From assembly GCA_964501575.1 (NCBI GenBank), contig CAZCTP010000005.1:2446-66445 (forward strand): a stretch of 64,000 nucleotides of DNA. Direction: 5' to 3'. Made by a program: the position numbers and the translations under genes. Positions 5,480 through 51,896 of this stretch are shown one piece after another. The notes below the pieces were generated by a model. The model was not told where the DNA came from, made no database searches, and worked only from the letters and a program-made list of their open reading frames with translations. Each line of letters begins with the position of its first letter. Positions within the stretch are counted from its first letter, which is position 1. The DNA comes from an uncultured Thermodesulfobacteriota bacterium (GTDB lineage: Bacteria > Desulfobacterota > CAZCTP01).

Positions 5480-6082
5480 TCAATGAATATTACCGTGCAT
5501 CATTCCCTTTCCCATTTCTGGTATATTTATTTTCTGGTAACCAGTAGGTATTTCAAAGAGGTTATTAGGCTGTTTCTCAATCTTAATATTCTTAAGCTCC
5601 TGACTCCAGCTTCCATCAATAGCAGCTGATTTAATGGTGAAATCAATATCTGTCGCTATCCATTGATATACTTTAAATAAACTATCTCTGTATTTTAAAG
5701 TAACCTCATATTTTTTTGTAGGATGTCCATTTATAGTCTCTGTTCCGATAAGCTTTCTACTAACTTCCCCCTTAACCTTCTTCTCAAACTGTATTCCACT
5801 TTTAACATTAAAAGGAACCTCCATCCACATCCTTTGTTCAGGCATTATCATCCACATAATCTCTTTATCTTTCCTAATAATATTATAGCCTTTATGAACT
5901 GTATCCAAAACTTCCATTCGAATCTTATCCTGCTTATAGTAAATTTTACTTTTAAAAGTTCTACCTGAAGTCTTATGGATTGAATCAGCTGAAAATTCAA
6001 TAGCTATCACCGGATATATTAATAAAATAACACATCCCACAGCCAGAAACATCAATATTGATGACTTTCTTAACCTTTCCAT
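5480..6082 (-). CDS. Secreted hypothetical protein (N-terminal signal peptide; possible LolA-like/lipoprotein-sorting-like fold)
   Basis: 200 aa with a hydrophobic N-terminus (SILMFLAVGCVILLI). A strong SD (AGGAGGGGG) precedes the ATG. Function unknown. Confidence 0.55.
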   Translation of the reverse strand: MERLRKSSILMFLAVGCVILLIYPVIAIEFSADSIHKTSGRTFKSKIYYKQDKIRMEVLDTVHKGYNIIRKDKEIMWMIMPEQRMWMEVPFNVKSGIQFEKKVKGEVSRKLIGTETINGHPTKKYEVTLKYRDSLFKVYQWIATDIDFTIKSAAIDGSWSQELKNIKIEKQPNNLFEIPTGYQKINIPEMGKGMMHGNIH

Positions 6083-6321
6083 TTTTACCCCCTCCTATTT
6101 TTGACATTTAATATAACACATTTTACCCATTAATAATACAAATTTTTTATTTTCTTTAATCAGTTTGTCTATAGAGCTTACAAAAAGATAGACTACTTTT
6201 TAACCCGATTCCTTCTAAAGAAGTATCGGCTTCCATATCTTTCTGTCAGATTAAGAAGGGGAATTTGGTATATTTTGAAATGATATATTATAGATTCTAT
6301 TAGGAGTGAGTAGTATGATGA

Positions 6322-6349
6322 TTGACTTTTAAGAACAATATTATATAAT
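6322..6349 (+). promoter_or_regulatory. Candidate sigma70-type promoter (TTGACT-N16-TATAAT) for the 6450-16590 operon
   Basis: The hexamers were read directly from the sequence, about 100 nt upstream of the SDR start. Confidence 0.35.
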
Positions 6350-6449
6350 TAATATTATTGATAATTTATAAAATTATTATAAAATTATATATGATATCAA
6401 AAAGATTTTTATAATAAAGGGAGAAAATTAATAACTTTTAAGATAAAAG

Positions 6450-7259
6450 ATGGGTATATTATCAAAAAAAATAGCAATTATTACAGGAGGGGGAACTGGC
6501 ATAGGGAAGGCTATCTCCCTTGCCTATGCTAAAGAAGGATGTGATCTCGTAATAGCTCAAAGAACCTATGAAGCAGCTAAGAGGATGTCTGATCAGATAA
6601 AGAGTATGGGAAGGAGGGCCCTGGCATTAAAAACCGATATATCCAAGAGTGAGGATATCCGTAACCTTGTAAAAACCACTTTAGAAGAATTTGGAAGGAT
6701 AGATATATTGGTTAATAATGCAGCAGTATTCTTTCCGGTTCCCTTCTTAGAAATTTCAGAAGAGGAATTGGATATGGTGCTGTCTATAAACCTTAAAGGA
6801 ACCTTCTTACTCAGTCAGGCAGTGGCTAAAGAGATGGTCAAGAGGAGGAAAGGTAAAATTATAAATGTAGGTGCAGGACAGTCTTTACTTGGCATCCCCT
6901 TCTTCTCCCACTATGCCTCCTCAAAGGGAGGAATAAATGCTTTAACCAGGAGTATGGCAGCAGAGCTATCTCCCTATGGTATATATGTAAATGTAGTATC
7001 ACCTGGATATATCCTCACTGATAAGGTAATAGAGCTTCTTCCCCCTGAATTTGCTCAGGCGTTGACAGAGGTTATAACATCTTCAACCCCTTTAGGGAGG
7101 CTTGCCACCCCAGAAGAATGTGCTGGTGCAGCACTATATTTAGCATCTGATGAAAGTAATGGAGTGACAGGACATATTATTCCGGTAGATGGGGGCTGGA
7201 GTTCTGCTGTAAATTTGAATGAGATGATAAACAAATATAAGGAAAGGAGAGATAAATGA
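6450..7259 (+). CDS. Short-chain dehydrogenase/reductase (SDR)
   Basis: TGGGTGIG Rossmann motif, NNAA, and a YASSK catalytic Tyr-x3-Lys. 269 aa. Confidence 0.85.
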   Translation: MGILSKKIAIITGGGTGIGKAISLAYAKEGCDLVIAQRTYEAAKRMSDQIKSMGRRALALKTDISKSEDIRNLVKTTLEEFGRIDILVNNAAVFFPVPFLEISEEELDMVLSINLKGTFLLSQAVAKEMVKRRKGKIINVGAGQSLLGIPFFSHYASSKGGINALTRSMAAELSPYGIYVNVVSPGYILTDKVIELLPPEFAQALTEVITSSTPLGRLATPEECAGAALYLASDESNGVTGHIIPVDGGWSSAVNLNEMINKYKERRDK

Positions 7260-8812
7260 TGAAAGAATACGATCTTATAGTGGTTGGTTCAGGTCATAAT
7301 GGATTAATAGGAGGATGTTACTTAGCAAAGTCAGGATTAAAGGTTTTGGTCCTGGAAAAGAGAGAAATTCTTGGAGGTGGAGCCACAACAGAAGAGCTTA
7401 CCCTTCCTGGATTTAAACACGATGCCTGTTCCAGTGAACATGTTCTTATATTCTTTGGGCCGGTTATTAAAGAGCTTGAATTGGAGACCAGATATGGACT
7501 TGAATACTATTTCCATCCGGTTCTCTATGGGGTAGGTTTTATGGATGGAACAAGTATAGCTATGTATAAAGAGGTTAAAAAAACATGTGAGAGTATAGCT
7601 AAAGTTTCAGAGAAAGACGCAGATACTTATTTGTCCCTTTATAACAAATTTTTAAGTATTAAAGAGCCATTTTTGTCTCAGTCTTTTTCTCCACCTGTAG
7701 ACCCATCTGTCTTCTTTGGTAACTTAGAAAGGGTAGAAGGGGGAAAGGAGTTAGCCAGGCTCGCTATGTTAAATCCAAAGGAGGTTTTAGACGAATTATT
7801 TGAGGATGAAAGAACAAAGGGTTTTATATATGGGATGAGTGGAGCTGCATTATTGAATAGTCCTGATGAATTTGGAAGTGGTCTATCCATCTTTATTACC
7901 CTGGGTCTTCAATATTATGGAAAGATAGGAAAGGCTGTTGGTGGTGCAGGGATGTTAACATATTCTTTAAGGAAATGTCTTGAGGATAATGGGGGCGAGA
8001 CAAGAGTTAATTCTGAAGTAGATAGGATTATTGTAGAGGATGGTAAGGCTTCAGGAGTAAAGTTAAAAGATGGAGAAATAATAAAAGCAAAGAAGGCTAT
8101 TCTTGTTAATAGCCCACCTCATCTTATTGTAAAAATGGTAGGCAAAGACTATGTAGGAGAGGATTTCAGCAGAAAGGCAGAGAATTTTAGATTCGGAACG
8201 GGGCTCTTTGCTATCCATTTGGCCTTAGATGGTGAGGTAAATTTCAATGCTTCTGAATTAAATGGATGTGGAGCAACTATAATCTATGAAACCCTTTCTC
8301 ACAGTCTCAAGTGTTTCAATGAATGTAAAGAGGGAAGGATACCATGGGATAATATCTGTCTTTATTTTACAAATTATAATCTTGGACTTTCGTCCAGGGC
8401 AAAGAGAGCTCCTGAAGGGAAAGCAGCTGCACTTCTTATGGGAATACCTGTTCCTGCATTCTTTTCTGATGGGTCATCATGGCACTTTCATAAGATGAAA
8501 TTTGCTGAAGCTCTTATTTCAAAGCTGGAAGAATATGCACCTAATATAAGATCCCTAATTATTAAAAGCAGGATTGAATCCCCATCAGATATTGAAAGGA
8601 GAATACCAGGAATGGTAGGAGGGGATATTATGATAGGAAGAAATTCTTTAGAACAGTACTTTTTTAGGCCATTTCCTGGATATACACATTATAGAACATC
8701 TATACCAAATCTTTATATGACAGGGGGAGCTACCTGGCCTTCTGGTGGAATTTCTGGAGCTTCGGGTTATAACGTTGCAAATATAATAAAAGAGGATTTG
8801 AATATCAGATGA
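7256..8812 (+). CDS. FAD-dependent oxidoreductase, phytoene-desaturase (CrtI)-like / COG1233 family
   Basis: N-terminal GxGxxG dinucleotide-binding motif (VVGSGHNGL) followed by VLE...GG. 518 aa. ATGA overlap with the SDR. Confidence 0.7.
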   Translation: MMKEYDLIVVGSGHNGLIGGCYLAKSGLKVLVLEKREILGGGATTEELTLPGFKHDACSSEHVLIFFGPVIKELELETRYGLEYYFHPVLYGVGFMDGTSIAMYKEVKKTCESIAKVSEKDADTYLSLYNKFLSIKEPFLSQSFSPPVDPSVFFGNLERVEGGKELARLAMLNPKEVLDELFEDERTKGFIYGMSGAALLNSPDEFGSGLSIFITLGLQYYGKIGKAVGGAGMLTYSLRKCLEDNGGETRVNSEVDRIIVEDGKASGVKLKDGEIIKAKKAILVNSPPHLIVKMVGKDYVGEDFSRKAENFRFGTGLFAIHLALDGEVNFNASELNGCGATIIYETLSHSLKCFNECKEGRIPWDNICLYFTNYNLGLSSRAKRAPEGKAAALLMGIPVPAFFSDGSSWHFHKMKFAEALISKLEEYAPNIRSLIIKSRIESPSDIERRIPGMVGGDIMIGRNSLEQYFFRPFPGYTHYRTSIPNLYMTGGATWPSGGISGASGYNVANIIKEDLNIR

Positions 8813-11085
8813 TTATGGATGAGTATTCGGTTATAGGGAAAAGATTACCCAGGGTAGATGGAGTGATGAAGGTTACTGGAAAAGCCAAATATACTACTGA
8901 TCTTGTATTACCTGGGATGCTACATGGAAAGATTATTAGGTCTCCCTACCCCCATGCCAGGATCCTTAATATAGATACTTCAAAGGCTGAAAAACTTTTG
9001 GGAGTGAGGACTATTATAAAGGGCTCAGATTTTAATGAAATTAAAATAGGGCTTTTTGGGGACCCTGCTCAACTCGATGAACCCTTTTTAGCAGTAGATA
9101 GAGTTAGATTCATAGGAGAAGGAGTGGCAGCAGTAGCAGCTATAGACGAGGAGATAGCGGAAGAGGCTTTAGAACTTATCAAGGTAGAATATGAAGAACT
9201 TCCTTCTCTATTTAGTATGGAGGAAGCTATAAAGGAGGGTTCTTATCAGATACATGAAGGAACTGAAAGAAATATAGCTATGTCATTTTCTTCAGGGTTT
9301 GGTGATATAGATAAAGGATTCAGAGAATCTTATTATATTAGAGAGGATAGATTCTCTCTATCTCCACTTAATTCATGCTCCATGGAGACTCTGGTATCTA
9401 TAGCTGATTTTACCCCTGATGGGAAATTATCCCTATGGAGTCCAACTCAGACTCCATTTTTCCTCCGTAAACAGTTATCCAGGGCTTTAAATATGAGAGA
9501 AGGAGATATAAGGGTTATAAATCCATTTATGGGAGGAGCACACTGTTCGACAAAACATGAGGCGTTAACCCATCATATTTCCTCAGCTTTACTTTCAAAA
9601 AAGGCAGGACATCCGGTAAAGATAGAATTAAGTAGAGAGGAGGTATTTAATATAAACAGAGGGGCTCCCCCTGTTACAATTTACATTAAAACAGGAGTTA
9701 AGAAAAATGGTGAGATTGTAGCCAAGAAATATGAAATAGAGGCAGACTGTGGGGCATATAAGGGTATGAGTCCCCTTTTCCTTTATCTTTCGTACCTTTA
9801 TGCAAATTTCCCTTATCGGCTTCAAAATCTCAAATACGAAGGAAGATTAATCTATACAAATAATCCTCCCAATGCTACCCAGAGAAGTTGTGGATTGGTT
9901 TCTATAAATATAGCCGATGAGTCCCACTTAGGCATAATTTCAGAAGAGCTCGGTATGGATCCCTTTGAAATAAGGCTTAAAAATGCTTTAAGGGAGGGTG
10001 ATATAACTAAACAGAGGGTCAGGATCACAAGCTGTGGACTCTCTGAATCTATCAGAATGGTCAGAGAGAAATTAGGCTGGAATGGAGATAGAGCAATAGG
10101 GGTAGCTTGCGAAGGTTGTCCATCAGGTGCTAAGGCCTTTCTTCCCCATGATACGTCTTCTGCCTTTATAAATATCCATGAAGATGGGACTGTTACTCTA
10201 TTTACAGGACTTCCAGAACTTGGTCAGGGGTCTGATACGGTCATGGCTCAGATTGCTGCAGAAATTTTAGGTGTTTCATTAGAGGATATTAAAGTAATCT
10301 CCGGAGATACCGAGGGTGCGCCTATGGATTTAGGGAGCTATGGAAGTAGAGGGACATTCCAGGGAGGGAATGCTGTTAAGAATGCTGCTTTAGATGCAAG
10401 AAGTCAGCTTCTAATGGCTGCTGCAGAAAAGCTTTCTGTTAAGATAGACGATCTTATAATAAGAGAGAGAAATATATGGGTTAAGAATGACCCTGGAAAA
10501 AGAATCTCTGTTGCTGAGGCTGTTGAGTTTAGCCAAAATATTGGAGGGAAACCTGTCATGGGTAAGGGCTATTATAACCCCTCTTCAGATTTTTTAGATC
10601 CTCTTACTTTCAAAGGAAACATTTCCTTAGCATATAGCTTTGGAGCTCATGGGGTTGAATTAAAAGTAGATGAAGAGACGGGAGAGGTTGGGGTAATCAA
10701 TTCTATAATGGCTCATGACTGCGGTTTTCCTCTTAATCCCATGTCTGTTGAGGGCCAGATAGAAGGACAGATTTCTCAAGGATTGGGGCAGGCATTCTTT
10801 GAAAGGCGTTTTCTTGAAAATGGTCAGCAATTGAATCCAAATTTGCTTGATTATAAAATTCCCACTTCTTTAGAGATGCCCCCTGTAACACCAATCTTAG
10901 TTGAGACCATAGATCCAAATGGGCCATTCGGAGCAAAGGAGTGTGGAGAAGGACCTCAAGTGGGATTTATTGGAGCTATAATAAATGCTGTTTATAAGGC
11001 TGTGGGGGTAAGGATAAAGAAGATTCCTTTGACTCCGGAGATTATCCTAAAAGCTATAGATGAGAAGAGAAGGAGGAGAAGATGA
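8809..11085 (+). CDS. Molybdopterin-dependent hydroxylase large subunit (xanthine dehydrogenase / aldehyde oxidase family, Mo-binding)
   Basis: 758 aa with the N-terminal a/b-hammerhead signature (GK.LPRVDG..KVTGKAKYT.D) and a long MoCo-binding domain. ATGA overlap with the upstream gene. Confidence 0.8.
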   Translation: MIMDEYSVIGKRLPRVDGVMKVTGKAKYTTDLVLPGMLHGKIIRSPYPHARILNIDTSKAEKLLGVRTIIKGSDFNEIKIGLFGDPAQLDEPFLAVDRVRFIGEGVAAVAAIDEEIAEEALELIKVEYEELPSLFSMEEAIKEGSYQIHEGTERNIAMSFSSGFGDIDKGFRESYYIREDRFSLSPLNSCSMETLVSIADFTPDGKLSLWSPTQTPFFLRKQLSRALNMREGDIRVINPFMGGAHCSTKHEALTHHISSALLSKKAGHPVKIELSREEVFNINRGAPPVTIYIKTGVKKNGEIVAKKYEIEADCGAYKGMSPLFLYLSYLYANFPYRLQNLKYEGRLIYTNNPPNATQRSCGLVSINIADESHLGIISEELGMDPFEIRLKNALREGDITKQRVRITSCGLSESIRMVREKLGWNGDRAIGVACEGCPSGAKAFLPHDTSSAFINIHEDGTVTLFTGLPELGQGSDTVMAQIAAEILGVSLEDIKVISGDTEGAPMDLGSYGSRGTFQGGNAVKNAALDARSQLLMAAAEKLSVKIDDLIIRERNIWVKNDPGKRISVAEAVEFSQNIGGKPVMGKGYYNPSSDFLDPLTFKGNISLAYSFGAHGVELKVDEETGEVGVINSIMAHDCGFPLNPMSVEGQIEGQISQGLGQAFFERRFLENGQQLNPNLLDYKIPTSLEMPPVTPILVETIDPNGPFGAKECGEGPQVGFIGAIINAVYKAVGVRIKKIPLTPEIILKAIDEKRRRRR

Positions 11086-42145: not shown

Positions 42146-42401
42146 AAATTATTTTTACTAAAAAATCAAGCTTTTAGAAATAGAGTTTAAAAATTATAGA
42201 TTTAACCTCCTTTTATGATTTGTTTTTCAAAAGTAGTTTATATTATAAAATCATTTAAATAAAATTACAATTTCTTATTGTCTGAATTAAGAGATTGATT
42301 TTATTGATAAGCACATAAAACTTGTTTGTTTAACTCTGTTGATTGTGGGTATTATGTGGTTTTGAACGTAGTTACAAAGTAAGTATCTTCTAAGATAATC
42401 A

Positions 42402-42430
42402 TTGACAATAAGTCTAATATATTATATATT
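42402..42430 (+). promoter_or_regulatory. Candidate sigma70-type promoter (TTGACA-N17-TATATT) for uppP
   Basis: The hexamers were read directly, about 17 nt upstream of the ATG at 42448. Confidence 0.4.
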
Positions 42431-42447
42431 GTAGAGAAAAGTCTCTA

Positions 42448-43203
42448 ATGAATATATCTTATGCGATCTTATTAGGAATATTGCAAGGGTTAACAGAATT
42501 TTTGCCTATAAGCAGCTCAGCTCATCTTGTAATTGTCCAGTCCTATATAAAAGATTTTCATCAACCTGGGGCATTATTTGATATTACACTACATTTTGGA
42601 ACATTGTTGGCGATATTCATATATTTCAGAAAGGAAATAAAGAATATATTGTTTAATAATAGAAAAGTAATAATTTTAATAGTAATTGGAAGTATACCAA
42701 CCGGGATAATAGGACTATTACTTAAAGATTATGCAGAGATTCTCTTTTCATCCCTATCTTTATCTTCATTAATGCTTATTGTAACAGGCATTCTTTTGTA
42801 TATAGCATCTAAATTTAATAATAACGGGAAAAAAGAGATAAGGAAATCTGATGCTATATTAATAGGTGTTATTCAAGGGCTTTCTGTAATTCCTGGTATA
42901 TCCCGATCTGGATCAACCATATCTGTAGGTATATATAGGGGAATAAAGGCTGAACATGCTGCAGAATTCTCGTTTTTGCTTTCAATCCCAGCAGTATTGG
43001 GAGCGAATATTTTAAGTATGAGAGATTTCGTTTTACTTTCTGGAACCGAGGTAAGCTATTACATTATTGGAATGCTTACTTCGTTTTTGTCCGGTCTTAT
43101 AGGTTTGCATTTCCTTATGAAATTTATAAATAGATTAAACTATTTTTCATATTATTGTTTTGCTATTGGAGGTATAAATCTAATTGAAGCCTTCAAAATA
43201 TAA
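42448..43203 (+). CDS. uppP: Undecaprenyl-diphosphate phosphatase
   Basis: N-terminal GILQGLTEFLPISSSAHL, a C-terminal repeat (GISRSG), and 8 TM segments. Confidence 0.85.
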   Translation: MNISYAILLGILQGLTEFLPISSSAHLVIVQSYIKDFHQPGALFDITLHFGTLLAIFIYFRKEIKNILFNNRKVIILIVIGSIPTGIIGLLLKDYAEILFSSLSLSSLMLIVTGILLYIASKFNNNGKKEIRKSDAILIGVIQGLSVIPGISRSGSTISVGIYRGIKAEHAAEFSFLLSIPAVLGANILSMRDFVLLSGTEVSYYIIGMLTSFLSGLIGLHFLMKFINRLNYFSYYCFAIGGINLIEAFKI

Positions 43204-45190
43204 TAAAGAGATTATAGGGATAATATCATTCTCATTGGCTGTATTTATTGGTATAAGTTTATTTTCGTACAATTCCAATGACATCTCATTCAGTAATATA
43301 GATAATAGAGGAATTAGTAATTTAGGTGGATGGGTAGGGGCATATTTATCCAATATTTTATTTCAGGTAATAGGATTGAGTTCATATCTTATACCTTTTA
43401 TTTTACTATATGTATCAATAAACTTTTTTATAGATAAAGAATTTAAAAAGTCTGAATTTATAGGGATAGTCACATTCATAATTTCAGGTTCATCCATTAT
43501 TGCTTTGACATTTCCCTATGTATCAATTAATGGGAATAGAATATTGGGAGGAGGAATATTTGGTTCCTTTATTTCAAATATATTAATAGAATACTTCAAT
43601 ATTACAGGGACATTTATTCTCCTTTTATCAGCAGTTATCTTGTCAATTATATTAATTGGTAATGTATCTGTCTATTCTCTCTTTAAATCAATTAGTATAA
43701 AAAGAAGTCCTTTGAAAGTTAATACTAAGCAAAATGTTCCAGTAACTCAGGATGCTGATGTATCTATAAAACCTGAGATTGACTCAAAATCCATGACAGA
43801 TCAAGGCTACCAAGCTCCTCCAATAAGTTTACTGAACTCCCCTGGATCTTCAGTATCTAAACTTGAAAAAGATGAATTGATAAACAATTCAAAAATTCTT
43901 GAAGATAGATTAAAAGGATTTGGTGTTAATGGTAAAATTGTAGAAGTGCATCCTGGCCCAGTAATAACAATTTATGAGTTCGAACCTGCCCCAGGTGTAA
44001 AAATAAATAAGATAGTTAATCTTTCACATGATTTATCTTTAGCCCTGAAGGCTCCATCAATTAGGATAGTTGCTCCTATTCCGGGAAAGTCTGTAGTTGG
44101 TATAGAGATTCCTAATACTGTCAGAGATACAGTTTATCTAAAAGAAATATTGAAATCTAATGAATTTAATAATTCAAAGTCAAAGCTTACATTGGCTTTA
44201 GGAAAGGATATATTTGGAAATCCGGTGATAACAGACCTTACAAAGATGCCTCATCTATTAATTGCTGGTGCAACCGGAGCAGGTAAGAGTGTTGGTTTAA
44301 ACTCTATGATATGTAGTATTTTATATAAAGCTACACCGGATGATGTTAAACTAATGATGATAGACCCGAAGATGTTAGAACTTTCGCTATACGATGGGAT
44401 TCCTCATCTTCTTATTCCAATAGTTACAGATTATAAGAAATCTGCCCCAGCATTAAAAGGAATTGTAGAAGAGATGGAAAATAGATATAGAATAATGGCT
44501 GATATTGGTGTAAGAAATATAGATAGGTATAACCAAAAGGTAGGTAAAGAAGGTAAGAAGATTCCATATATAGTTGTTATTATTGATGAACTTGCTGATC
44601 TTATGATTGTGTCAGCAAGAGAAGTGGAGGAATCTATTGCAAGATTAGCTCAGATGGCAAGAGCGGCTGGGATACACCTTATTGTAGCCACTCAGAGGCC
44701 ATCTGTTGATGTTTTGACAGGTATAATAAAGGTTAATTTTCCTGCAAGAATCTCTTTTAAAGTTACTTCAAGAGTGGATTCAAGGACTATTCTTGATGCT
44801 ATTGGAGCAGAGAGTTTGCTTGGATCAGGAGATATGCTATTTCTTCCTCCAGGGACCTCAAAGCTCAAGAGAATCCATGGAGCATATATATCCGAGTTAG
44901 AGATAAAGAGAGTTGTGAACTTTCTGAGAAAATATAAGACACCAGAATATAATGAGGAGATAATGAAATGGGGGGAGAGCGATTTTAATGAAGATGAAGA
45001 GCAGGATGAGAAATATAAAGAGGCAGTGGAGATAGTTCTACAAACAGGACAGGCATCAATATCTCTTATTCAGAGAAGATTGAAGATAGGTTTTAATAGG
45101 GCTGCGAGAATGATTGAGATGATGGAGAAGGAAGGTATAGTGGGACCTCAAGAGGGAGGGAAGCCAAGGGAGGTATTATTAAAGGAATAG
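43184..45190 (+). CDS. ftsK: DNA translocase FtsK
   Basis: N-terminal TM segments, Walker A (AGATGAGKS), Walker B (VVIIDELADL) and a C-terminal gamma winged-helix domain. Confidence 0.9.
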   Translation: MKPSKYNKEIIGIISFSLAVFIGISLFSYNSNDISFSNIDNRGISNLGGWVGAYLSNILFQVIGLSSYLIPFILLYVSINFFIDKEFKKSEFIGIVTFIISGSSIIALTFPYVSINGNRILGGGIFGSFISNILIEYFNITGTFILLLSAVILSIILIGNVSVYSLFKSISIKRSPLKVNTKQNVPVTQDADVSIKPEIDSKSMTDQGYQAPPISLLNSPGSSVSKLEKDELINNSKILEDRLKGFGVNGKIVEVHPGPVITIYEFEPAPGVKINKIVNLSHDLSLALKAPSIRIVAPIPGKSVVGIEIPNTVRDTVYLKEILKSNEFNNSKSKLTLALGKDIFGNPVITDLTKMPHLLIAGATGAGKSVGLNSMICSILYKATPDDVKLMMIDPKMLELSLYDGIPHLLIPIVTDYKKSAPALKGIVEEMENRYRIMADIGVRNIDRYNQKVGKEGKKIPYIVVIIDELADLMIVSAREVEESIARLAQMARAAGIHLIVATQRPSVDVLTGIIKVNFPARISFKVTSRVDSRTILDAIGAESLLGSGDMLFLPPGTSKLKRIHGAYISELEIKRVVNFLRKYKTPEYNEEIMKWGESDFNEDEEQDEKYKEAVEIVLQTGQASISLIQRRLKIGFNRAARMIEMMEKEGIVGPQEGGKPREVLLKE

Positions 45191-45264
45191 GGATTGTTGC
45201 ATTATTAATATTTATTATATTAATTTTTAATATTAGAGATAGCTTTAGCCTTGAAAGGGATATA

Positions 45265-45816
45265 TTGGATAGGATGCAATTAATATATGAGGAAGCAGAT
45301 GATATAAAGGGTAATTTTATTCAGGAGTCTTTCTTAAAGTCCTTAAATAAATGGGATAAAATGGAAGGGGAGTTTTATATTAAAAAACCTGGAATGATGC
45401 GATGGAATTATAAAAAGCCATATATTCAGGAGATAATAATTTATGGTAGGAAGATATGGATCTATTATCCTTTAGAGAAGGAAGTAACTGTGAATAAATT
45501 ATCAGATGCATTGATAGATAATATTTCAATAACCTTTCTATTAGGTGCTGGAAATATAAAGAAAGATTTCAATATTAAAATGGCTAAGGTCCCTTATTCA
45601 TTTAATCTCTTTCCAAAGAATCAAATGGGAGATGTAGATAGAATATTCATAAATATTGATAGTAAGAGTTATTTAATAAAACTAATGGAGATCCATGACA
45701 TATATGGGAATATAAATAGGCTAAAGTTTAATAATCTTTCAATAAATAATAATATTTCTTTATCTTTGTTTATTTTTAAACCACCAAAAGATGTGGAGAT
45801 AATAGGTGAAGAATAA
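45265..45816 (+). CDS. lolA: Outer-membrane lipoprotein carrier protein LolA (N-terminus uncertain)
   Basis: The LolA-family pattern runs through the ORF. An in-frame hydrophobic segment lies upstream of the tabulated TTG start; see findings. Confidence 0.6.
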   Translation: MDRMQLIYEEADDIKGNFIQESFLKSLNKWDKMEGEFYIKKPGMMRWNYKKPYIQEIIIYGRKIWIYYPLEKEVTVNKLSDALIDNISITFLLGAGNIKKDFNIKMAKVPYSFNLFPKNQMGDVDRIFINIDSKSYLIKLMEIHDIYGNINRLKFNNLSINNNISLSLFIFKPPKDVEIIGEE

Positions 45817-46048
45817 AATTAAGAGTAATCTTATCTTAAATACATTGGGAGAATATTGTCCTATTCCTATAATTAAGACTCAGGAGTATATAAATAAAAT
45901 AAAAATGGGCGAAGTACTTGAGATATTATCGGATGATAAAGGAATTATAAAAGATATGATAGACTGGTGTAAGGGTAGTGGCAATGAGTTTATAGGGTTT
46001 GATAAGGATAATGATAAGTATAGACTATATATAAAAAGATTGGTATAG
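45806..46048 (+). CDS. TusA-like sulfurtransferase
   Basis: 80 aa with the N-terminal LNTLGEYCPIPIIKT motif (CPxP active-site Cys). GTG start overlapping lolA. Confidence 0.65.
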   Translation: MKNKIKSNLILNTLGEYCPIPIIKTQEYINKIKMGEVLEILSDDKGIIKDMIDWCKGSGNEFIGFDKDNDKYRLYIKRLV

Positions 46049-46058
46049 GGAGAACATC

Positions 46059-46823
46059 TTGGAAGATAGAAGACTCGGTGATGAATGGATAGACTGGAGT
46101 GGTAACTTAAATGATTATGAGTGGGATATAAAGGAAAGGAAACGTCTTTTCTTTGGTTTCTCTATAGTTGTATTTTCTCTTTTAATAACAGGGTCTCTAT
46201 TTTTAGGGTATCTAATAAAACCCCGTCTGAATCAAATAACTCCTCTCTTATCAAAGATAATATTTTTATTCTTCTTTTTTATCCTATCCCTTATATTTTT
46301 ATGGTTTTTCCTTTTAGCAATATCTACAATCACGGGTAAAAACTATCTTCCATTTCCAAGGTTAAACTATGCCATTTTGGATTTCTTCTTAATAAGAGCT
46401 ATATGGCTTGGAGAGAAACTTGGAATATCAAAGGATAGGATGTGTAATTCCTTTATAAAGGTAAATAATGCTCTTGTAAAAAGCATAAAGGGCATATACT
46501 ATAGGGATAAACTTTTAATTTTATTACCTCGATGTTTAGATAAGAGAGTGATAGATGTGATAAAAGATATATGTAAAAGATATAAATGTGAAATAATGAT
46601 AGTAGGTGGGGGGAATCTGGCAAGGAAGATAATCCTTGAAAAGAAGCCTACTGCTATAATAGGGGTTGCATGTGAGAGAGATCTTGTTAGTGGAATAAAG
46701 GATGTAGCAAAGAATATTCCAGTGATAGGAATCGCAAATAAGAGGCCTAAAGGTCCATGTAAGGATACCTATATAGATATCAATCAGTTAGAGGAGGCTA
46801 TTAAATTCTTTAGCTATGGGTAG
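46059..46823 (+). CDS. Membrane protein with Cys-rich cytoplasmic domain (DUF116-like)
   Basis: Two TM helices followed by a domain carrying conserved Cys (LPRCL, C..YKC, VAC). TTG start 6 nt after GGGAG. Confidence 0.45.
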   Translation: MEDRRLGDEWIDWSGNLNDYEWDIKERKRLFFGFSIVVFSLLITGSLFLGYLIKPRLNQITPLLSKIIFLFFFFILSLIFLWFFLLAISTITGKNYLPFPRLNYAILDFFLIRAIWLGEKLGISKDRMCNSFIKVNNALVKSIKGIYYRDKLLILLPRCLDKRVIDVIKDICKRYKCEIMIVGGGNLARKIILEKKPTAIIGVACERDLVSGIKDVAKNIPVIGIANKRPKGPCKDTYIDINQLEEAIKFFSYG

Positions 46824-47850
46824 TATAAAGGCAATAGCTTTGATATCTGGAGGGCTTGATAGTAAGCTCTCCACAAAGATAATAAAGGATATGGGAGTAG
46901 ATATAATAGGGCTTAATTTCTATACCGGATTCTGTATTGTTGAGCAGAAAAGGAGAATAGGAAGAAAAGGGAAAGATGGGGAACTTCCAAGAAATGAGGC
47001 ATTGAAATCCTCTTCAGATATTGGTATACCTCTTGAGATAATTGATATATCTGAGGAGTATCTTAAAATGGTTGTAAATCCAAAATTTGGATACGGTGCA
47101 AATGTTAATCCATGTATTGATTGCAGGATATATATGTTAAGAGAGGCAAAAAGGTTAATGGAAGAAAAGGGTGCAAGTTTTGTAGTTACAGGAGAGGTTT
47201 TAGGAGAGAGACCCATGTCCCAGAACAGAAAAGCACTTGATATAGTTGAGAATGAGAGCGATCTAAAGGGGCTTATACTCCGTCCACTTTCTGCAAAGCT
47301 CCTTTCACCAACCCTACCAGAAATAAATAGATGGGTTGATAGAGATAAACTATACTCAATCCAGGGAAGATCAAGAAAGGAACAGATGAAATTGGCAAAG
47401 GAGTTTGGCATAGAAGAATATCCTCAACCAGCTGGAGGTTGCTGTTTTCTGACTGATGAGAACTATGCAAGGAGGTTTAGGGACCTGCTTGCCCATAAAG
47501 GAGTATTAACCCATGATGATGTGATACTTTTAAGTGTTGGAAGACATTTTAGAATATCTGAAGGTTTAAAGATTATCGTTGGAAGAAATGAAGGGGAGAA
47601 TAATTTACTTGAAAGGTATAAAAGAGGGAGATATATTTTTAAAGTAAATGGTTTTCCAGGACCATTAACATTGGCAGAAGGGATTATAGATAGAGAAGAA
47701 GAAAAAAGGATAATCTCTGCTATAACAGTAAGATATAGTGATTGCAAGAATAATAAAGGAATTGAGGTTATATTGGATAGGGATGGAGTGCATGAGATTA
47801 TTAAGATTGATGAAGTATATGATATTTCAATAGAGGAGATGAGGATATAA
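46816..47850 (+). CDS. ThiI-like PP-loop ATP pyrophosphatase (sulfurtransferase family) lacking a THUMP domain
   Basis: SGGLDS PP-loop at residue 11, a ThiI-like TGEVLGE...SQ...LILRPL block, and a C-terminal domain with a GGCCF motif. Confidence 0.6.
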   Translation: MGSIKAIALISGGLDSKLSTKIIKDMGVDIIGLNFYTGFCIVEQKRRIGRKGKDGELPRNEALKSSSDIGIPLEIIDISEEYLKMVVNPKFGYGANVNPCIDCRIYMLREAKRLMEEKGASFVVTGEVLGERPMSQNRKALDIVENESDLKGLILRPLSAKLLSPTLPEINRWVDRDKLYSIQGRSRKEQMKLAKEFGIEEYPQPAGGCCFLTDENYARRFRDLLAHKGVLTHDDVILLSVGRHFRISEGLKIIVGRNEGENNLLERYKRGRYIFKVNGFPGPLTLAEGIIDREEEKRIISAITVRYSDCKNNKGIEVILDRDGVHEIIKIDEVYDISIEEMRI

Positions 47851-47852
47851 AT

Positions 47853-48104
47853 ATGGATGATGTAGAAAAAATAAGGGTATTTAGAGATATTATAAGAGGA
47901 TCTGATCTAAAGGTCGTAGCAAAGGAGTTTATAAACGTTATAGAGAGGATGATTATTCTTGAGCTTATGGCAGAAGATAGAGGGATTAATATAGAAGAGG
48001 AGATAGAGAAACTATATGATGATAAATGGGAGAAGATTAAGGAAGACAGGGATAACTATATAGATTTTGTAATTGGGAGGATAGTATACCAATTAGAGGG
48101 TTAA
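47853..48104 (+). CDS. Hypothetical small acidic protein
   Basis: 83 aa and tightly packed in the operon, 2 bp after the previous gene and 1 bp before tldD. Confidence 0.45.
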   Translation: MDDVEKIRVFRDIIRGSDLKVVAKEFINVIERMIILELMAEDRGINIEEEIEKLYDDKWEKIKEDRDNYIDFVIGRIVYQLEG

Positions 48105-48105
48105 T

Positions 48106-49503
48106 ATGGGCATTAATGATTTCAACCTGAGTATGATATTAAAAAAAGCTCTTAAGAATGGTGGATTGTTTGCTGACATATATTATGAGAGGAGTATTCC
48201 TACATCTATAATCCTTGATGATAATAGGATAGAGAAAGTTATATCAGGGATTGATGAAGGGGTTGGAATAAGGGTTGTAGATAGTAAATATAGGGTATTA
48301 TATGCGTATACTAATGAGATAGAAAAGGAGAGTCTTTTAAAACTTGCGGATAATATAGCAGTGATGATAAAAGAGAAGATATACGAAAAGAATATAAACA
48401 TAATGAAGAGGGTCCCATCATTGAAATTACCCATATCAAAACTTCCTGATACAGTAGATATAAACTATAAGATAGAGATTGTTAAAAGGGGAAATGATAG
48501 GGCAGTTTCTATGGATAAAAGAGTAAGGCAGGTTAAAGTGGTATATAGAGATTTAATTAAGAATGTTGCTATAGCCAATTCAGATGGATTATATATTGAA
48601 GATGATAGAGTAGAGACTCTCTTCTTTATTCAGGTTGTAGCCTATGATAATGGGGTTATCCAGACAGGCTATGAAGCTGTTGGAGGAGCTATCGGAATAG
48701 AGCTATTCGATGAGAATACACCGGAAGATGTGGCAGAGAAATCTGCAAGGAGAGGATTGATGATGCTTACTGCAAAAAAGGCTCCTTCCGGGAAAATGCC
48801 TGTTGTATTATCGAGTGAAGCAGGAGGGACGATGATACATGAAGCGATTGGACATGGTCTTGAGGCTGACCTTGCAATGGATGGTTTATCGGTATATTCA
48901 AATAAGTTGGGAGAAAGAGTTGCATCACCTCAGATAACTGTAATAGATGATTCAACCATTCCTCATAAAAGAGGCTCCTTTTCCTTTGATGATGAGGGTA
49001 TTGAATCTCAGAAAACAGTTCTTTTAGATAAGGGAATTCTCGTTAATTATCTATATGATAGGGTCTCTGCGATGAAGTATAATACAAAACCCACCGGGAA
49101 TGGGAGAAGAGAATCATATCAGTTTCAGCCAATACCAAGGATGAGCAATACATTTATTGCCCCTGGAGATAGCAATCCAGTAGATATTATAAAAGATACA
49201 TATAAGGGACTGTTTGTTAAAAAGATGGGAGGGGGTCAGGTAAATACTGTTAATGGTGATTTTGTTTTTGAGGTTAGTGAGGGATATCTAATCGAAAATG
49301 GGAAAATTGGAGAGCCTGTGAGGGGAGCAACCCTGACAGGGAATGGCCCCAAGATTTTAAAGATAATAGACAAGGTAGGTAATGATCTCGGATTTTCCTT
49401 AGGTACATGTGGTAAAGATGGCCAGGGGGTACCTGTAGGGGATGCTCAGCCAACACTGAGAATACCTGAAATAGTTGTTGGAGGAGAAAGATTAGAATAT
49501 TAA
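48106..49503 (+). CDS. tldD: Metalloprotease TldD
   Basis: HEAIGHGLE zinc motif. 465 aa. Confidence 0.85.
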   Translation: MGINDFNLSMILKKALKNGGLFADIYYERSIPTSIILDDNRIEKVISGIDEGVGIRVVDSKYRVLYAYTNEIEKESLLKLADNIAVMIKEKIYEKNINIMKRVPSLKLPISKLPDTVDINYKIEIVKRGNDRAVSMDKRVRQVKVVYRDLIKNVAIANSDGLYIEDDRVETLFFIQVVAYDNGVIQTGYEAVGGAIGIELFDENTPEDVAEKSARRGLMMLTAKKAPSGKMPVVLSSEAGGTMIHEAIGHGLEADLAMDGLSVYSNKLGERVASPQITVIDDSTIPHKRGSFSFDDEGIESQKTVLLDKGILVNYLYDRVSAMKYNTKPTGNGRRESYQFQPIPRMSNTFIAPGDSNPVDIIKDTYKGLFVKKMGGGQVNTVNGDFVFEVSEGYLIENGKIGEPVRGATLTGNGPKILKIIDKVGNDLGFSLGTCGKDGQGVPVGDAQPTLRIPEIVVGGERLEY

Positions 49504-49541
49504 AATTAATAGTATCTATAATTCTTATTGTAACCTTCTCT

Positions 49542-51272
49542 GTGGGGGCCCATGGATTTGAGAGAATAAGAAGGGCTGCTGTCAGCGGTAAATTCTATCC
49601 CTCAAATCCAAAAGCACTTTCTTCAATGATAAATAGATTCTTAAAAAATGTTCGTGATAGGAAGGTAAAGATAGAGGGTAAGATAGTGGCTATTATAGTT
49701 CCCCATGCCGGTTATAAATATTCCGGGAGGATATCTGCATATTCATATAAGGCCCTAAAAGGATATAAATTTGATTCAATTATTATTATAGGTCCAAGTC
49801 ATTTTATTCCATTTAATGGTGTATCTGTATATAATAGAGGATATTTTGAAACCCCACTCGGAAAAGTTCCTGTAGATTCAGAGCTTGCAGAGAAGATAAT
49901 AAATTATGATAGCTCAATATCATTTAGAGAGGAAGCTCATATAATGGAGCATTCTTTAGAGGTCCAGCTTCCATTTTTACAGACCATATTTAAGGATATA
50001 AAGATAGTTCCAATAGCCATGGGGTTGCAGGATAGAAAGATGGTTAATATATTGTCGGATGCATTGATAAAGAATCTTTCAAATAAGAATGTTCTTATAA
50101 TAGCAAGCTCAGATCTTTCCCATTATCATCCAGCTAAAGAAGCAAAAAAGCTTGATTCTGAGGGGATAAAATCTATTAAATCCCTTGATTATGATGGGTT
50201 TATGAAAAAGCTTGAGAATGGAAAGACTGAATTCTGCGGAGGAGGTGCTGTAGCTGTTGCATTAAGGGTAGCAGAAGAATTGGGTGCGGATGGAGTAAAG
50301 ATATTAAAATACGGAGATTCCGGTGATATTACCGGGGATAAATCTGCTGTTGTTGGATATCTTTCAGCAGTGATCTTTAAAGGTGAGAAAATTTTGATAT
50401 CCGATGATGGTAAAAAAGAACTGCTAATTATTGCAAGAAGATCAATAGAGGAATATATTAAACACAGGAGAATTCCTGAATTTAAGATCAAAAATAAAGA
50501 GATTTTTAATAAAAGGGGAGTATTTGTTACACTAAAGAAGAATGGTATATTAAGAGGATGTATAGGAATAATAAAACCTGTATTCCCTCTATATAAAGCA
50601 GTTATTAGGTCCGCTATTTCTTCTGCCTTTAATGATCCAAGATTTCTTCCATTATCAAAGAATGAAATTAAAGATATAGATATAGAGATCTCTGCTCTAT
50701 CTCCATTAAGAAGGGTAGAAGATGTATCAGAGATAAAGGTTGGAACCCATGGAATATTGATAGAAAAAGGACCTCATAGAGGAATACTACTACCTCAGGT
50801 TGCTGTTGAGTATAGATGGGATAGGGATAGATTTCTTGAAGCAACATGCAGGAAAGCTGGATTGCCAAAAGATGCGTGGAAGAAGGGAGGTCAGATATAT
50901 ATATTTACTGCTGATATATTCAATGAAGATGATTTTTTATTGCCTTCTAATATAGATAAGTGGAAAAAGAAAGGGAAAATAAAAGCTTACAGTTCTTTGA
51001 ATCTTTTTGAATATCTGAATGGAGGAGCTGATATATATATTAAAAATGGATTTAGAGAGCTTCTTGTCCAGGAATATTCTTATAAAAATCTGAATATTAC
51101 TGTAGAGATATATAAAATGGACAATAAGAATGATGCAAAAAAGGTATATAATAGGGCTAAAGAAAGAAATTATATAGAACTATTGAAGGATAGATATATC
51201 TTAAGAATTTACTCCCCTGATAATATAAATGTAGCTCCCTTTGCTGAGAAAGTAGTAAATAGAATAAAGTGA
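49542..51272 (+). CDS. Fused Memo (AmmeMemoRadiSam protein B)-AMMECR1 (protein A) protein with a C-terminal extension of about 115 aa
   Basis: The N-terminal RRAAVSGKFYP pattern and the IVPHAGY...PSH region match the Memo family. The AMMECR1 domain (IARRSIEEYI...GILRGCIG) follows. GTG start; N-terminus uncertain. Confidence 0.65.
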   Translation: MGAHGFERIRRAAVSGKFYPSNPKALSSMINRFLKNVRDRKVKIEGKIVAIIVPHAGYKYSGRISAYSYKALKGYKFDSIIIIGPSHFIPFNGVSVYNRGYFETPLGKVPVDSELAEKIINYDSSISFREEAHIMEHSLEVQLPFLQTIFKDIKIVPIAMGLQDRKMVNILSDALIKNLSNKNVLIIASSDLSHYHPAKEAKKLDSEGIKSIKSLDYDGFMKKLENGKTEFCGGGAVAVALRVAEELGADGVKILKYGDSGDITGDKSAVVGYLSAVIFKGEKILISDDGKKELLIIARRSIEEYIKHRRIPEFKIKNKEIFNKRGVFVTLKKNGILRGCIGIIKPVFPLYKAVIRSAISSAFNDPRFLPLSKNEIKDIDIEISALSPLRRVEDVSEIKVGTHGILIEKGPHRGILLPQVAVEYRWDRDRFLEATCRKAGLPKDAWKKGGQIYIFTADIFNEDDFLLPSNIDKWKKKGKIKAYSSLNLFEYLNGGADIYIKNGFRELLVQEYSYKNLNITVEIYKMDNKNDAKKVYNRAKERNYIELLKDRYILRIYSPDNINVAPFAEKVVNRIK

Positions 51273-51374: not shown

Positions 51375-51896
51375 TCAAGTAGCTTTCATCTTCTTTTGGT
51401 AGGTATCGAACCACTTCTGGTCTGCTAAAACCACAGAAGTCTCCACCTGTCGTTTTGGAACCGACCAATATATTCTAAGCAATCGATCCTTTTCTTTCAG
51501 AGAAACCAACCTAAAACCACGCTTTTCATAAAAACGGATAGCCCAGATAGCATCTGCCCATGTACCGATCAATATTGGGCGGTTTGTCTGCATTTGAAGA
51601 CAAGAAAGCAACTTTCCTCCTATACCCTGATTCCGCTTAACTGTCCGAACATAGGCATGTCTTATGAGAGTTACATCTCTAACATGTTGAATACCCATTA
51701 CACCAACCAATTTACTATTTTCCTCATATCCCCAGAATATTATACCTTCATCGTCTATTTCATGTCGAAGCTCATCTTTAGACATATAAGGTTCTTTCCA
51801 GCAATCTGTGGGGATAACCCCTTTATACGCTTTAGCAGCATCATTAATAATCTCATATATTATTTCAAACTCACTGTTCGTACATCTACGAATCAT
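51375..51896 (-). CDS. GNAT-family N-acetyltransferase
   Basis: Acetyl-CoA binding motif RNQGIGGKLL. 173 aa. Confidence 0.7.
   Translation of the reverse strand: MIRRCTNSEFEIIYEIINDAAKAYKGVIPTDCWKEPYMSKDELRHEIDDEGIIFWGYEENSKLVGVMGIQHVRDVTLIRHAYVRTVKRNQGIGGKLLSCLQMQTNRPILIGTWADAIWAIRFYEKRGFRLVSLKEKDRLLRIYWSVPKRQVETSVVLADQKWFDTYQKKMKAT

Follow-up and report, generated by a model that had tools for sequence, protein, structure and literature searches.

The window, that is the whole 64-kb stretch of DNA that was analysed, contains a co-directional string of nine genes, which begins at uppP/ftsK, not at lolA, and continues with lolA, tusA, a DUF116 gene, a thiI-like/NFACT-R gene, a DUF2018 gene, tldD and memo-ammecr1 (Table 1). 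The seven ORFs from lolA onwards, here genes 1 to 7, had been described in the initial annotation as an operon; their common orientation, overlaps of 11 and 8 nt and gaps of 10, 2, 1 and 38 nt were re-derived identically, and the domain calls for all seven were borne out by profile searches. Independent JGI gene calls on the source contig give the same ORFs, save for a LolA start 9 nt later. The uppP and ftsK genes overlap by 20 nt, and a promoter-like site, the best in the region, lies just 5' of uppP, at 42402-42430 (11 of 12 matches, a consensus match alone). The window is 93% coding; its same-strand gaps have a median of 5 bp and 72% of them are 40 bp or less. The tight spacing of the seven genes is the norm for the host genome and no more than chance would give.

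Table 1. Genes of the co-directional string and the two portions of gene 7 (positions in the 64-kb window; all listed ORFs are on the + strand)
Feature	Position	Strand	Source of the assignment
uppP/bacA, undecaprenyl-diphosphatase family	42448-43203	+	PF02673 BacA in JGI gene table
ftsK, DNA translocase	43184-45190	+	FtsK_4TM, FtsK_alpha, FtsK_SpoIIIE, FtsK_gamma domains
Gene 1, LolA ORF, first canonical start	45265-45816	+	ORF list
Gene 2, TusA-like sulfur carrier	45806-46048	+	ORF list, PF01206
Gene 3, DUF116 membrane protein	46059-46823	+	ORF list, PF01976
Gene 4, ThiI-like PP-loop ATPase + NFACT-R_2	46816-47850	+	ORF list, PF18297, PF02568, PF03054
Gene 5, DUF2018 small acidic helical protein	47853-48104	+	ORF list, PF09442
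Gene 6, TldD-family metalloprotease	48106-49503	+	ORF list, three PmbA_TldD domains
Gene 7, Memo-AMMECR1-DUF6599-like	49542-51272	+	ORF list, TIGR04336, TIGR04335, PF20244
Gene 7, Memo (AmmeMemoRadiSam B) + AMMECR1 (A) portion	49542-50933	+	TIGR04336, TIGR04335
Gene 7, C-terminal tail, 112 aa, DUF6599-like	50934-51272	+	PF20244

Gene 1 matches TIGR00547 (127.4 bits, cut-off 112, over model positions 23-201 only) and also PF03548. The protein translated from its first canonical start, TTG 45265, has no signal peptide; the frame 5' of this codon encodes ...KGIGIVALLIFIILIFNIRDSFS..., and a Shine-Dalgarno-like sequence, AAGGGAGG, precedes ATT 45175/45178. Because of this upstream in-frame stretch, and since no signal peptide results from TTG 45265, the start is probably ATT 45175 or 45178, overlapping the ftsK stop, and the gene would then span 45175-45816; a LolA signal peptide is present only with translation from one of these two codons. 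The position directly 3' of ftsK is that of the ftsK-lolA synteny of Proteobacteria, with the overlap being probable here, while the ATT start codon, if right, is unusual by comparison with the proteobacterial arrangement. The order in E. coli is lrp-ftsK-lolA-rarA-serS. Since lolA follows ftsK as in Proteobacteria, gene 1 is accounted for without any tie to the downstream genes: it goes with ftsK and not with them.

Gene 2 gives 74.3 bits with PF01206, and the Cys-Pro-x-Pro motif of the family is found as CPIP at residues 18-21. Gene 4 is matched at residues 5-158 by the Pfam models ThiI (PF02568, 33.7 bits) and MnmA HUP (PF03054, 31 bits); neither a THUMP nor a rhodanese domain was detected in it by Pfam profile search at E <= 0.01, and its C-terminal part is an NFACT-R_2 RNA-binding domain (PF18297, 71.6 bits, residues 242-336), which had been overlooked in the initial annotation. 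An alignment of 20 sequences revealed that the PP-loop motif S11-G12-G13-L14-D15-S16 (SGGLDS), C100-x-x-C103, G184-R185-x-R187-x-x-Q190 and C209-C210 are invariant, together with R243, R246 and R257 of the NFACT-R_2 part. The best PDB match is MnmA (E 7e-4), the similarity to solved thiolases being marginal. Gene 4 is a predicted tRNA uridine thiolase (s4U).

The same pairing was proposed by Burroughs and Aravind (RNA Biol 2014; PMC4075521), who described TusA and a ThiI-like PP-loop/NFACT-R (DUF814) enzyme as a predicted alternative pathway for tRNA 4-thiouridylation; the motifs of the family are SGGxDS, CxxC, an internal Cys, GRxRxxQ and conserved Arg in NFACT-R, and TusA is the sole broadly conserved neighbour of the enzyme, with IscU/NifU in Aquificota. 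Thus the sulfur-relay or thiolation activity initially read from the TusA-like protein and the PP-loop enzyme matches this module, and the pairing is not new, since it was already predicted in 2014. In the literature after that year no paper was found on the NFACT-R-type ThiI family, and the s4U activity is a prediction. In a route following Burroughs and Aravind (2014), a cysteine desulfurase would load a persulfide onto the CPxP cysteine of TusA; the tRNA would be held by the NFACT-R domain of gene 4 in the stead of THUMP, the target uridine would be adenylated by the PP-loop domain, and sulfur delivery would yield thiouridine, predicted to be s4U8.

Neighbourhood scans were performed on the best-scoring 80 loci for each of two queries, gene 4 and the gene 7 fusion, with 10 kb on each side. 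A TusA homologue is found in 50/81 gene 4 loci, the window's own counted, nearly always adjoining and on the same strand. Fe-S genes are also met near gene 4 homologues, with IscU as the gene immediately upstream in 10 loci, NifU-like genes present in 11 and Mrp/NUBPL immediately upstream in 4-6; these three flank the homologues across several phyla. In the archaeal rhodanese-less TtuI/ThiI a CXXC + C arrangement binds a catalytic [4Fe-4S] cluster (PMC9825150). Because of the invariant CxxC and C(C) cysteines and of the flanking Fe-S assembly genes, the comparison suggests that sulfur transfer by gene 4 may, like that of archaeal TtuI, proceed via a [4Fe-4S] cluster.

The other genes of the string do not recur in this way. 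In the 80 gene 4 loci, which are drawn from many phyla, AMMECR1, DUF116, DUF2018 and LolA are absent within 10 kb (0/80 each; for DUF2018 the best E in a relaxed search was 0.31), TldD and a Memo-like gene occur in one locus each, and FtsK and the gene 7 tail were confined to the contig of the window; clustering the neighbours de novo led to the same outcome as the profile counts. Around the Memo-AMMECR1 fusions, TusA, gene 4, DUF116, DUF2018, TldD and LolA were found within 10 kb in 0/80 loci. The main neighbour there is a radical SAM gene, present in 36/80 and directly upstream in 19.

Part of the order is kept in a sister lineage (contigs L162 and L163, gene 4 80% identical), which has FtsK-LolA-TusA-gene 4-DUF2018-TldD and no DUF116. 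The C-terminus of FtsK lies directly 5' of LolA in L162, and in both contigs the N-terminus of TldD follows DUF2018, where the contigs end. Members of the clade share the order LolA-TusA-gene 4-DUF2018-TldD, with amino-acid identities of 65-80% and junctions of 0-2 nt. Gene 5 itself gives 37.5 bits with PF09442; its sister counterparts are 75% identical and hold the same position directly 3' of gene 4, at a junction that is a 2-nt gap in the window and a stop and start sharing one base in L162/L163. The placement of DUF2018 directly after gene 4 is kept in the sister lineage only. Given the kept order, a clade-specific functional coupling is possible, especially of gene 4 with DUF2018.

An oddity left over is the DUF116 gene inside the TusA/ThiI pair. 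Gene 3 matches PF01976 with 105 bits (cut-off 25), has four invariant cysteines, C159, C177, C205 and C234, and in the AlphaFold model (pLDDT 88.7) consists of four long helices followed by a Rossmann-like alpha/beta domain with the four Cys. It is set exactly inside the pair, with a 10-nt gap before and an 8-nt overlap after, and its GC3 is no different from that of the neighbouring genes. TusA and gene 4 are in one strand run in the window but with DUF116 between them, whereas they are directly adjacent in the sister contig; this insertion is specific to the present lineage. Elsewhere DUF116 occurs in four contexts, ThiC, MoaA with an HMPTM-type radical SAM gene, NifU, and YfiH-like, none of which includes TusA or gene 4, and it comes immediately 3' of ThiC, NifU or a radical SAM gene. 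Where DUF116 sits in the window, Gemmatimonadota/Latescibacterota loci (L015, L020, L022 and L025) have the Fe-S carrier Mrp/NUBPL, likewise flanked by TusA and gene 4. Its position, cysteines and GC3 are compatible with a real accessory role of DUF116.

Gene 6 contains the first, second and third PmbA_TldD domains (PF01523, PF19290 and PF19289) and an intact HExxxH motif, HEAIGH; its score with NF008006 is 340 bits, under the equivalog cut-off of 513. A PmbA/TldE paralogue was found neither in the window nor in the flanking contig parts (about 83 kb inspected). The tldD and pmbA genes are unlinked in E. coli too.

The Memo part of gene 7 (residues 10-278) gives 293 bits with TIGR04336 (cut-off 26) and the AMMECR1 part (residues 293-460) 182.3 bits with TIGR04335 (cut-off 99), the LRGCIG motif being invariant. 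The initial annotation was right about the fusion and about an additional C-terminal domain, now seen to be 112 aa long and DUF6599-like. The A/B fusion is no novelty, being common and already annotated: the best 120 homologues show the same two-domain fusion in 120/120 cases, under the JGI name 'AmmeMemoRadiSam system protein B/...A'. The other fusions among these 120 end at about 80% of the gene 7 query, and the DUF6599-like tail is unique to gene 7 among the top homologues. The tail matches PF20244 with 34 bits (cut-off 27) over profile positions 4-69 of 186, and, like the N-terminal region of DUF6599 proteins, contains the motif LFEYLNGGADIY; of its 687 relatives nearly all stand alone, as proteins of 270-320 aa whose N-termini are of the signal or lipoprotein kind. 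By its profile coverage the tail is to be classed as a DUF6599 fragment, not a typical or full-length member; it has no signal peptide and is joined to a cytoplasmic-type enzyme. The fusion of a fragment of this secreted-protein family to a Memo-AMMECR1 protein is a further oddity of the region.

It had also been noticed that no radical SAM gene lies within 12 kb of gene 7, and this could be extended to the 64-kb window and the inspected contig. The radical SAM genes neighbouring 24 fusion loci served to build a profile, which matched no ORF of the window even at E <= 10; the CxxxCxxC motif is in no window ORF of at least 100 aa, and the annotation of the contig, inspected over 34-22790, 46145-67179 and 61347-83089, includes no PF04055 there.

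Taken together, the region is quite probably a run of nine unrelated housekeeping genes, co-directional in a compact genome, with no dedicated seven-gene system and with TusA/ThiI-NFACT-R as the sole conserved module. Indeed, this pair is the only putative functional module at the locus with conservation support, and because only TusA and gene 4 travel together in other genomes, the rest of the string is read as an ordinary housekeeping run. The tldD and memo-ammecr1 genes are independent, and their adjacency to the string is seen inside this clade only. The initial annotation had taken the seven genes together as possibly one maturation system not yet described, inserting sulfur and including a processing protease. 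In this view sulfur would come from TusA and the PP-loop enzyme, the substrate modified by Memo-AMMECR1 might be the small acidic protein, and TldD would process that substrate. Such a system is suggested by co-directional genes with overlaps or gaps of 38 nt or less; moreover, proteases of the TldD type have some modified peptides, such as microcin B17, among their substrates, AmmeMemoRadiSam is presumed to carry out a modification although it is uncharacterised, and the radical SAM partner is not nearby. Against this, the scans show TusA and gene 4 recurring alone, and the TusA/gene 4 and Memo-AMMECR1 halves occur together in 0/160 other loci; the spacing is the genome norm and the string also takes in uppP, ftsK and lolA; about half of the fusion loci with ample flanks likewise lack an adjacent radical SAM gene (present in 11/21, none in 10/21); and the A/B fusion is common, while even in the sister lineage the gene set is not the same. 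At the neighbourhood level each half has its orthodox partner (TusA in 50/81, radical SAM in 36/80), the outcome that had been named beforehand as pointing to a chance juxtaposition, and a single seven-gene system is very improbable.

No more credit can be given to a separate two-gene module of TldD and Memo-AMMECR1-DUF6599, in which an enzyme modifying proteins or peptides would be paired with its protease, independently of the thiolation pair: the genes lie side by side, 38 nt apart, and the DUF6599 tail is unusual and found in gene 7 alone among the top matches, but TldD is within 10 kb in none of the 80 fusion loci. A clade-specific extended thiolation operon is unlikely, if less remote, with DUF116 and/or DUF2018 recruited to TusA/ThiI-NFACT-R, and TldD and Memo-AMMECR1 as passengers; DUF116 would act as Fe-S/sulfur donor or anchor and DUF2018 as a small acidic helical partner. 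It would account for DUF2018 abutting gene 4 in both clade members, for DUF116 occupying the Mrp/NUBPL slot, for the Rossmann-like domain of DUF116 with its four invariant Cys and for the genes that DUF116 directly follows elsewhere (ThiC, NifU or a radical SAM gene).

With the housekeeping run as the preferred reading, its members can be set beside known systems. Gene 6 shares with the TldD/PmbA pair the three-domain TldD architecture and the HExxxH motif, but differs in its sub-cut-off score and in having no PmbA in the roughly 83 kb inspected, where the partner may be elsewhere in the genome. Similarly, gene 7 corresponds to components B and A of the AmmeMemoRadiSam system (TIGR04335, TIGR04336, TIGR04337), far over the cut-offs and in the common B-A fused order; unlike that system, the region has no radical SAM gene in the same roughly 83 kb, though one may exist elsewhere in the genome, and unlike its 120 closest fusions the protein has the extra 112-aa tail. 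The archaeal TtuI/ThiI (PMC9825150) resemble gene 4, whose function is predicted, as rhodanese-less PP-loop U-thiolases with CxxC and a distal Cys; they retain THUMP, whereas gene 4 has NFACT-R instead. The closest likeness is to the family of PMC4075521, which has a PP-loop without THUMP or rhodanese, a C-terminal NFACT-R, the same motifs and a TusA with CPxP in the operon. In the present locus, by contrast, DUF116 separates tusA from the enzyme gene and DUF2018 comes after the latter, neither of which is reported there, while the 80-locus survey agrees with that work on TusA as neighbour and on IscU/NifU in Aquificota.

Genes 1-7, all on the plus strand, are probably a juxtaposition of housekeeping genes that encloses one genuine, already predicted two-gene module, formed by the TusA-like protein and the ThiI-like PP-loop enzyme of gene 4, and not the seven-gene sulfur-inserting maturation system with a processing protease proposed in the initial annotation. 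At the level of single genes that proposal was partly right: ORF calling located all seven where they had been placed, with the described overlaps of 11 and 8 nt and gaps of 10, 2, 1 and 38 nt. The independently made JGI gene calls agree on the 109-kb contig to which the window belongs (Ga0434945_000127, metagenome 3300038380), and Pfam and NCBIfam profile searches upheld every domain call. For gene 4 the PP-loop reading was correct, while its C-terminal NFACT-R_2 domain, the decisive feature, had been overlooked.

Tight gene spacing carries no signal here, since 93% of the window is coding and the median gap between same-strand neighbours is 5 bp (47 pairs; 72% at 40 bp or less, 55% at 10 bp or less). 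The co-directional run begins upstream of gene 1, at uppP, which shares an overlap of 20 nt with ftsK; because lolA in turn probably overlaps the end of ftsK, the string comprises nine genes, delimited by a divergent intergenic region and a convergent acetyltransferase gene. Between 42100 and 52200, both promoter consensus matches (56, against 50.3 ± 7.7 in shuffled sequences) and terminator candidates (4 against 3.8) are at background level, thus these scans do not define an operon or transcription units. Neither the first canonical lolA start nor the one chosen by JGI yields a signal peptide; the frame stays open further upstream, where it encodes a classic one, KGIGIVALLIFIILIFNIRDSFS. This upstream stretch contains no ATG, GTG or TTG codon, and two of its ATT codons come after a Shine-Dalgarno-like sequence, AAGGGAGG. 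The sequence suggests that lolA likely starts at a non-canonical ATT, which would overlap the ftsK stop codon. The same ftsK-lolA adjacency is found in E. coli, and the link to ftsK accounts for the presence of lolA.

Features of the nine-gene string (window positions) and of the compared loci (positions in each locus)
Feature	Position	Strand	Assignment
Divergent intergenic region	42146-42447		upstream bound of string
uppP	42448-43203	+	first gene of string
lolA frame, open back to	45118	+	
ATT codons in lolA frame	45175, 45178	+	
Gene 1, first canonical start	45265 (TTG)	+	LolA, TIGR00547, 127 bits (cut-off 112)
Gene 1, JGI start	45274 (ATG)	+	
Gene 2		+	TusA, PF01206, 74 bits; CPIP motif
Gene 3		+	DUF116, 105 bits
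Gene 4		+	ThiI/MnmA-like PP-loop domain, no THUMP, no rhodanese
Gene 4 C-terminus	residues 242-336	+	NFACT-R_2, PF18297, 71.6 bits
Gene 5		+	DUF2018, 37.5 bits
Gene 6		+	TldD, three domains; HEAIGH motif
Gene 7		+	Memo (TIGR04336, 293 bits), AMMECR1 (TIGR04335, 182 bits), 112-aa tail
Gene 7 tail		+	DUF6599, match confined to profile positions 4-69 of 186
Acetyltransferase gene	51375-51896	convergent	downstream bound of string
Mrp/NUBPL gene, L015, L020, L022, L025	about 8400-10000		PF10609, 347 bits
Stand-alone DUF6599 near fusion, L123	4728-5624	+	
Stand-alone DUF6599 near fusion, L123	11453-12328	-	
Stand-alone DUF6599 near fusion, L129	12182-12802		
Stand-alone DUF6599 near fusion, L110	2-610		
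Stand-alone DUF6599 near fusion, L148	4217-6313		
Polytopic membrane protein, L123	5635-7773	-	no Pfam match
Zinc-ribbon protein, L146	11458-11745		FmdB type, PF09723
153-aa protein, L090	644-1105		
DUF116 followed by an ORF, L164-L166	5798-6601	same for both	ORF unannotated
DUF116 followed by an ORF, L167-L169	about 5750-6540	same for both	ORF unannotated

The surroundings of gene 4 were surveyed in its best 80 loci in reference genomes (±10 kb; 81 with the window's contig), from phyla that include Aquificota, Acidobacteriota, Omnitrophota, Gemmatimonadota, Latescibacterota, Myxococcota, Thermodesulfobacteriota and Gammaproteobacteria; all ORFs of at least 40 aa were searched against each window protein with phmmer and two subsequent profile iterations. 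TusA is present in 50 of the 81 loci and almost always abuts gene 4 on the same strand; this conservation shows that the two form a module. None of the other 80 loci contains DUF116, DUF2018, LolA, FtsK, AMMECR1 or the gene 7 tail; besides the window, TldD lies near gene 4 in a single locus (L072, opposite strand) and a Memo-like gene in another (L040). When the three genes flanking gene 4 on each side were clustered de novo, the same picture emerged. IscU, NifU and Mrp genes adjoin gene 4 homologues in at least three phyla.

Several arrangements recur in this survey. A five-gene cluster, IscU - ThiI-like/NFACT-R - TusA - DUF1858 - NifU-like, is found in 10-11 Aquificota loci (L005, L007, L011, L019, L024, L026, L028, L031, L038, L052, L065). 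In four Gemmatimonadota/Latescibacterota loci an Mrp/NUBPL-type Fe-S carrier ATPase is encoded between tusA and the gene 4 homologue, directly upstream of the latter; further copies lie 493 bp from gene 4 in locus L009 and at 1.8 kb in L007. A second, divergent PP-loop/NFACT-R paralogue (scoring about 200-220 bits against the family profile) occurs within 10 kb in six loci of Omnitrophota and Thermodesulfobacteriota (L003, L006, L017, L055, L067, L076), in the last three just upstream, with only a shorter related ORF in between. The small DUF1858 protein is not among the conserved neighbours named in the retrieved sections of PMC4075521.

Gene 4 has a single close relative, 80% identical, in GCA_027061605.1 and an ENA contig; it lies on contigs of 2-2.5 kb that encode, in order, the FtsK C-terminus, LolA, TusA, gene 4, DUF2018 and the TldD N-terminus, with 65-80% amino-acid identity to the window; 67 bp separate TusA and gene 4, and DUF116 is missing. 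The clade keeps the synteny, which is no surprise among relatives; DUF116 is what varies. For DUF2018, a PDB sequence search returned nothing significant (best E 0.42), and neither did a relaxed profile search for similar small ORFs next to gene 4 across the 80 loci (best E 0.31), where the weak, non-significant top scores belong to Aquificota ORFs downstream of gene 4, one of them in the DUF1858 cluster.

The Memo-AMMECR1 fusion of gene 7 is found in all 120 top homologues listed (45-54% identity, 457-553 aa, with one outlier of 795 aa carrying extra domains), and JGI already names such proteins 'AmmeMemoRadiSam system protein B/...protein A'; their matches span only some 80% of gene 7, so these fusions lack its tail. 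Gene 7 starts with GTG, and a protein identical to it (P0121) was also found. In 80 metagenome fusion loci no ORF matches LolA, TusA, DUF116, gene 4, DUF2018, TldD, FtsK or UppP. A radical SAM protein is the commonest neighbour, and in 19 loci its gene immediately precedes the fusion in the same orientation; a profile of this neighbour detects the partner in 36 of the 80 loci and in 11 of the 21 whose flanks reach at least 5 kb each way, therefore roughly half of the fusions have no adjacent radical SAM gene, like the window. The reported absence of such a gene near gene 7 was confirmed, since no window ORF matches this profile; CxxxCxxC is absent from every window ORF of at least 100 aa. Annotations of contig stretches 34-22790, 46145-67179 and 61347-83089 contain no PF04055, and a second TldD/PmbA gene is absent from the same stretches. 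Nothing was found that ties tldD or memo-ammecr1 to the thiolation pair, or the two genes to one another, and a literature search on AmmeMemoRadiSam returned incidental mentions only.

A search of 1.84 billion representatives with the tail gave 687 relatives (E ≤ 1e-3); almost all of these stand alone, are 270-320 aa long and align to it over their residues ~30-110. The motif LYDYIDGGA is shared by the stand-alone DUF6599 proteins (LFEYLNGGA in gene 7), and three retrieved ones (P0362-P0364) have a signal or lipoprotein peptide at their N-terminus; the gene 7 fragment, by contrast, has no signal peptide and is joined to an enzyme of cytoplasmic type. In 5 of the 80 loci the fusion has stand-alone DUF6599 genes no more than 10 kb away, in one case as its immediate, convergent neighbour; the three-part Memo-AMMECR1-DUF6599 architecture appears rare. 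Other neighbours of the fusion are a large membrane protein (about 700 aa, polytopic; 20 loci, L123 and 19 others; in 9 it is encoded immediately downstream, on the other strand), DUF362 proteins (10 loci), an FmdB-type zinc-ribbon protein immediately downstream (8 loci) and, immediately upstream in 6 loci, a 153-aa protein whose sequence we take to resemble D-aminoacyl-tRNA deacylase.

By the refuting condition set in the initial annotation itself, the surveys around genes 4 and 7 argue against genes 1-7 as one system; the interpretation at that level was wrong. The TusA/gene 4 module had already been predicted (PMC4075521). Because conservation splits the genes into unrelated housekeeping genes, the claimed new system loses its importance; little is new beyond two minor clade-specific peculiarities. 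DUF116 inside the TusA/ThiI pair and the DUF6599 fragment on Memo-AMMECR1 may be entry points to two uncharacterised families.

A role for DUF116 in the module is conceivable and, in our judgement, improbable: it would be a four-cysteine metal/Fe-S-binding membrane protein serving cluster-dependent sulfur enzymes, recruited here into the TusA/ThiI-NFACT-R operon as an Fe-S/sulfur accessory. It occupies, between tusA and gene 4, the same slot as Mrp/NUBPL in the four loci of the table, and in other genomes its gene comes immediately after ThiC, an HMPTM-type radical SAM gene or NifU, which may indicate an Fe-S or radical-SAM theme. Its homologues compared for context (43-52% identity) occupy four different surroundings: LytB - radical SAM - RNase Y - ThiC - DUF116 - 238-aa unknown (three related MAGs), MoaA - HMPTM-type radical SAM - DUF116 - 221-aa unknown, NifU - DUF116, and cell-division cluster - Cu-oxidase_4 - DUF116; TusA and gene 4 are absent from all four. 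The unannotated 221-238 aa ORF follows DUF116 on the same strand in two of them. Recent horizontal import of DUF116 is unsupported (GC3 0.29, against 0.23-0.32 in its neighbours), and the literature search retrieved incidental mentions or unrelated DUF116x families only. If the accessory role were true, it would give the long-uncharacterised DUF116 family its first functional context, with DUF116 supplying or repairing the [4Fe-4S] cluster of the tRNA thiolase and, elsewhere, of ThiC or radical SAM enzymes.

The two-gene module corresponds to a known prediction. Burroughs and Aravind (RNA Biol 2014; PMC4075521) described the combination of a ThiI-like PP-loop domain with DUF814/NFACT-R in one protein that lacks THUMP and rhodanese; the family keeps its ATP-binding residues along with an internal Cys and the CxxC specific to ThiI, has the extra motifs GRxRxxQ and TxxE, and is predicted to serve an alternative pathway of tRNA 4-thiouridylation, with TusA taking the place of rhodanese and NFACT-R that of THUMP. 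Gene 4 is exactly such a protein, and it is a typical member since the family motif residues are invariant in a 20-sequence alignment (S11-G-G-L-D-S16, C100, C103, G184-R185-x-R187-x-x-Q190, C209, C210, R243, R246, R257); at least 8,000 candidate homologues were found at E ≤ 1e-10, with identical architecture in 120 of 120 among the matches listed. No later work joining NFACT-R/DUF814 with ThiI or s4U emerged from a literature search, thus the activity of the family is still a predicted one. [quoted passage not shown]

The remaining value of the string is modest: one more clear example of the TusA + ThiI-like/NFACT-R module, with predicted activity, two architectural oddities, and a survey of 80 loci that independently supports the company of the gene 4 family with Fe-S assembly genes, which turns a [4Fe-4S]-dependent mechanism into a concrete and testable proposal. 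Such sulfur transfer by gene 4 would agree with its invariant CxxC + C(C) and with the Fe-S gene neighbours; these features fit the [4Fe-4S]-dependent mechanism shown for the rhodanese-less archaeal TtuI, which carries a CXXC + C motif (PMC9825150).
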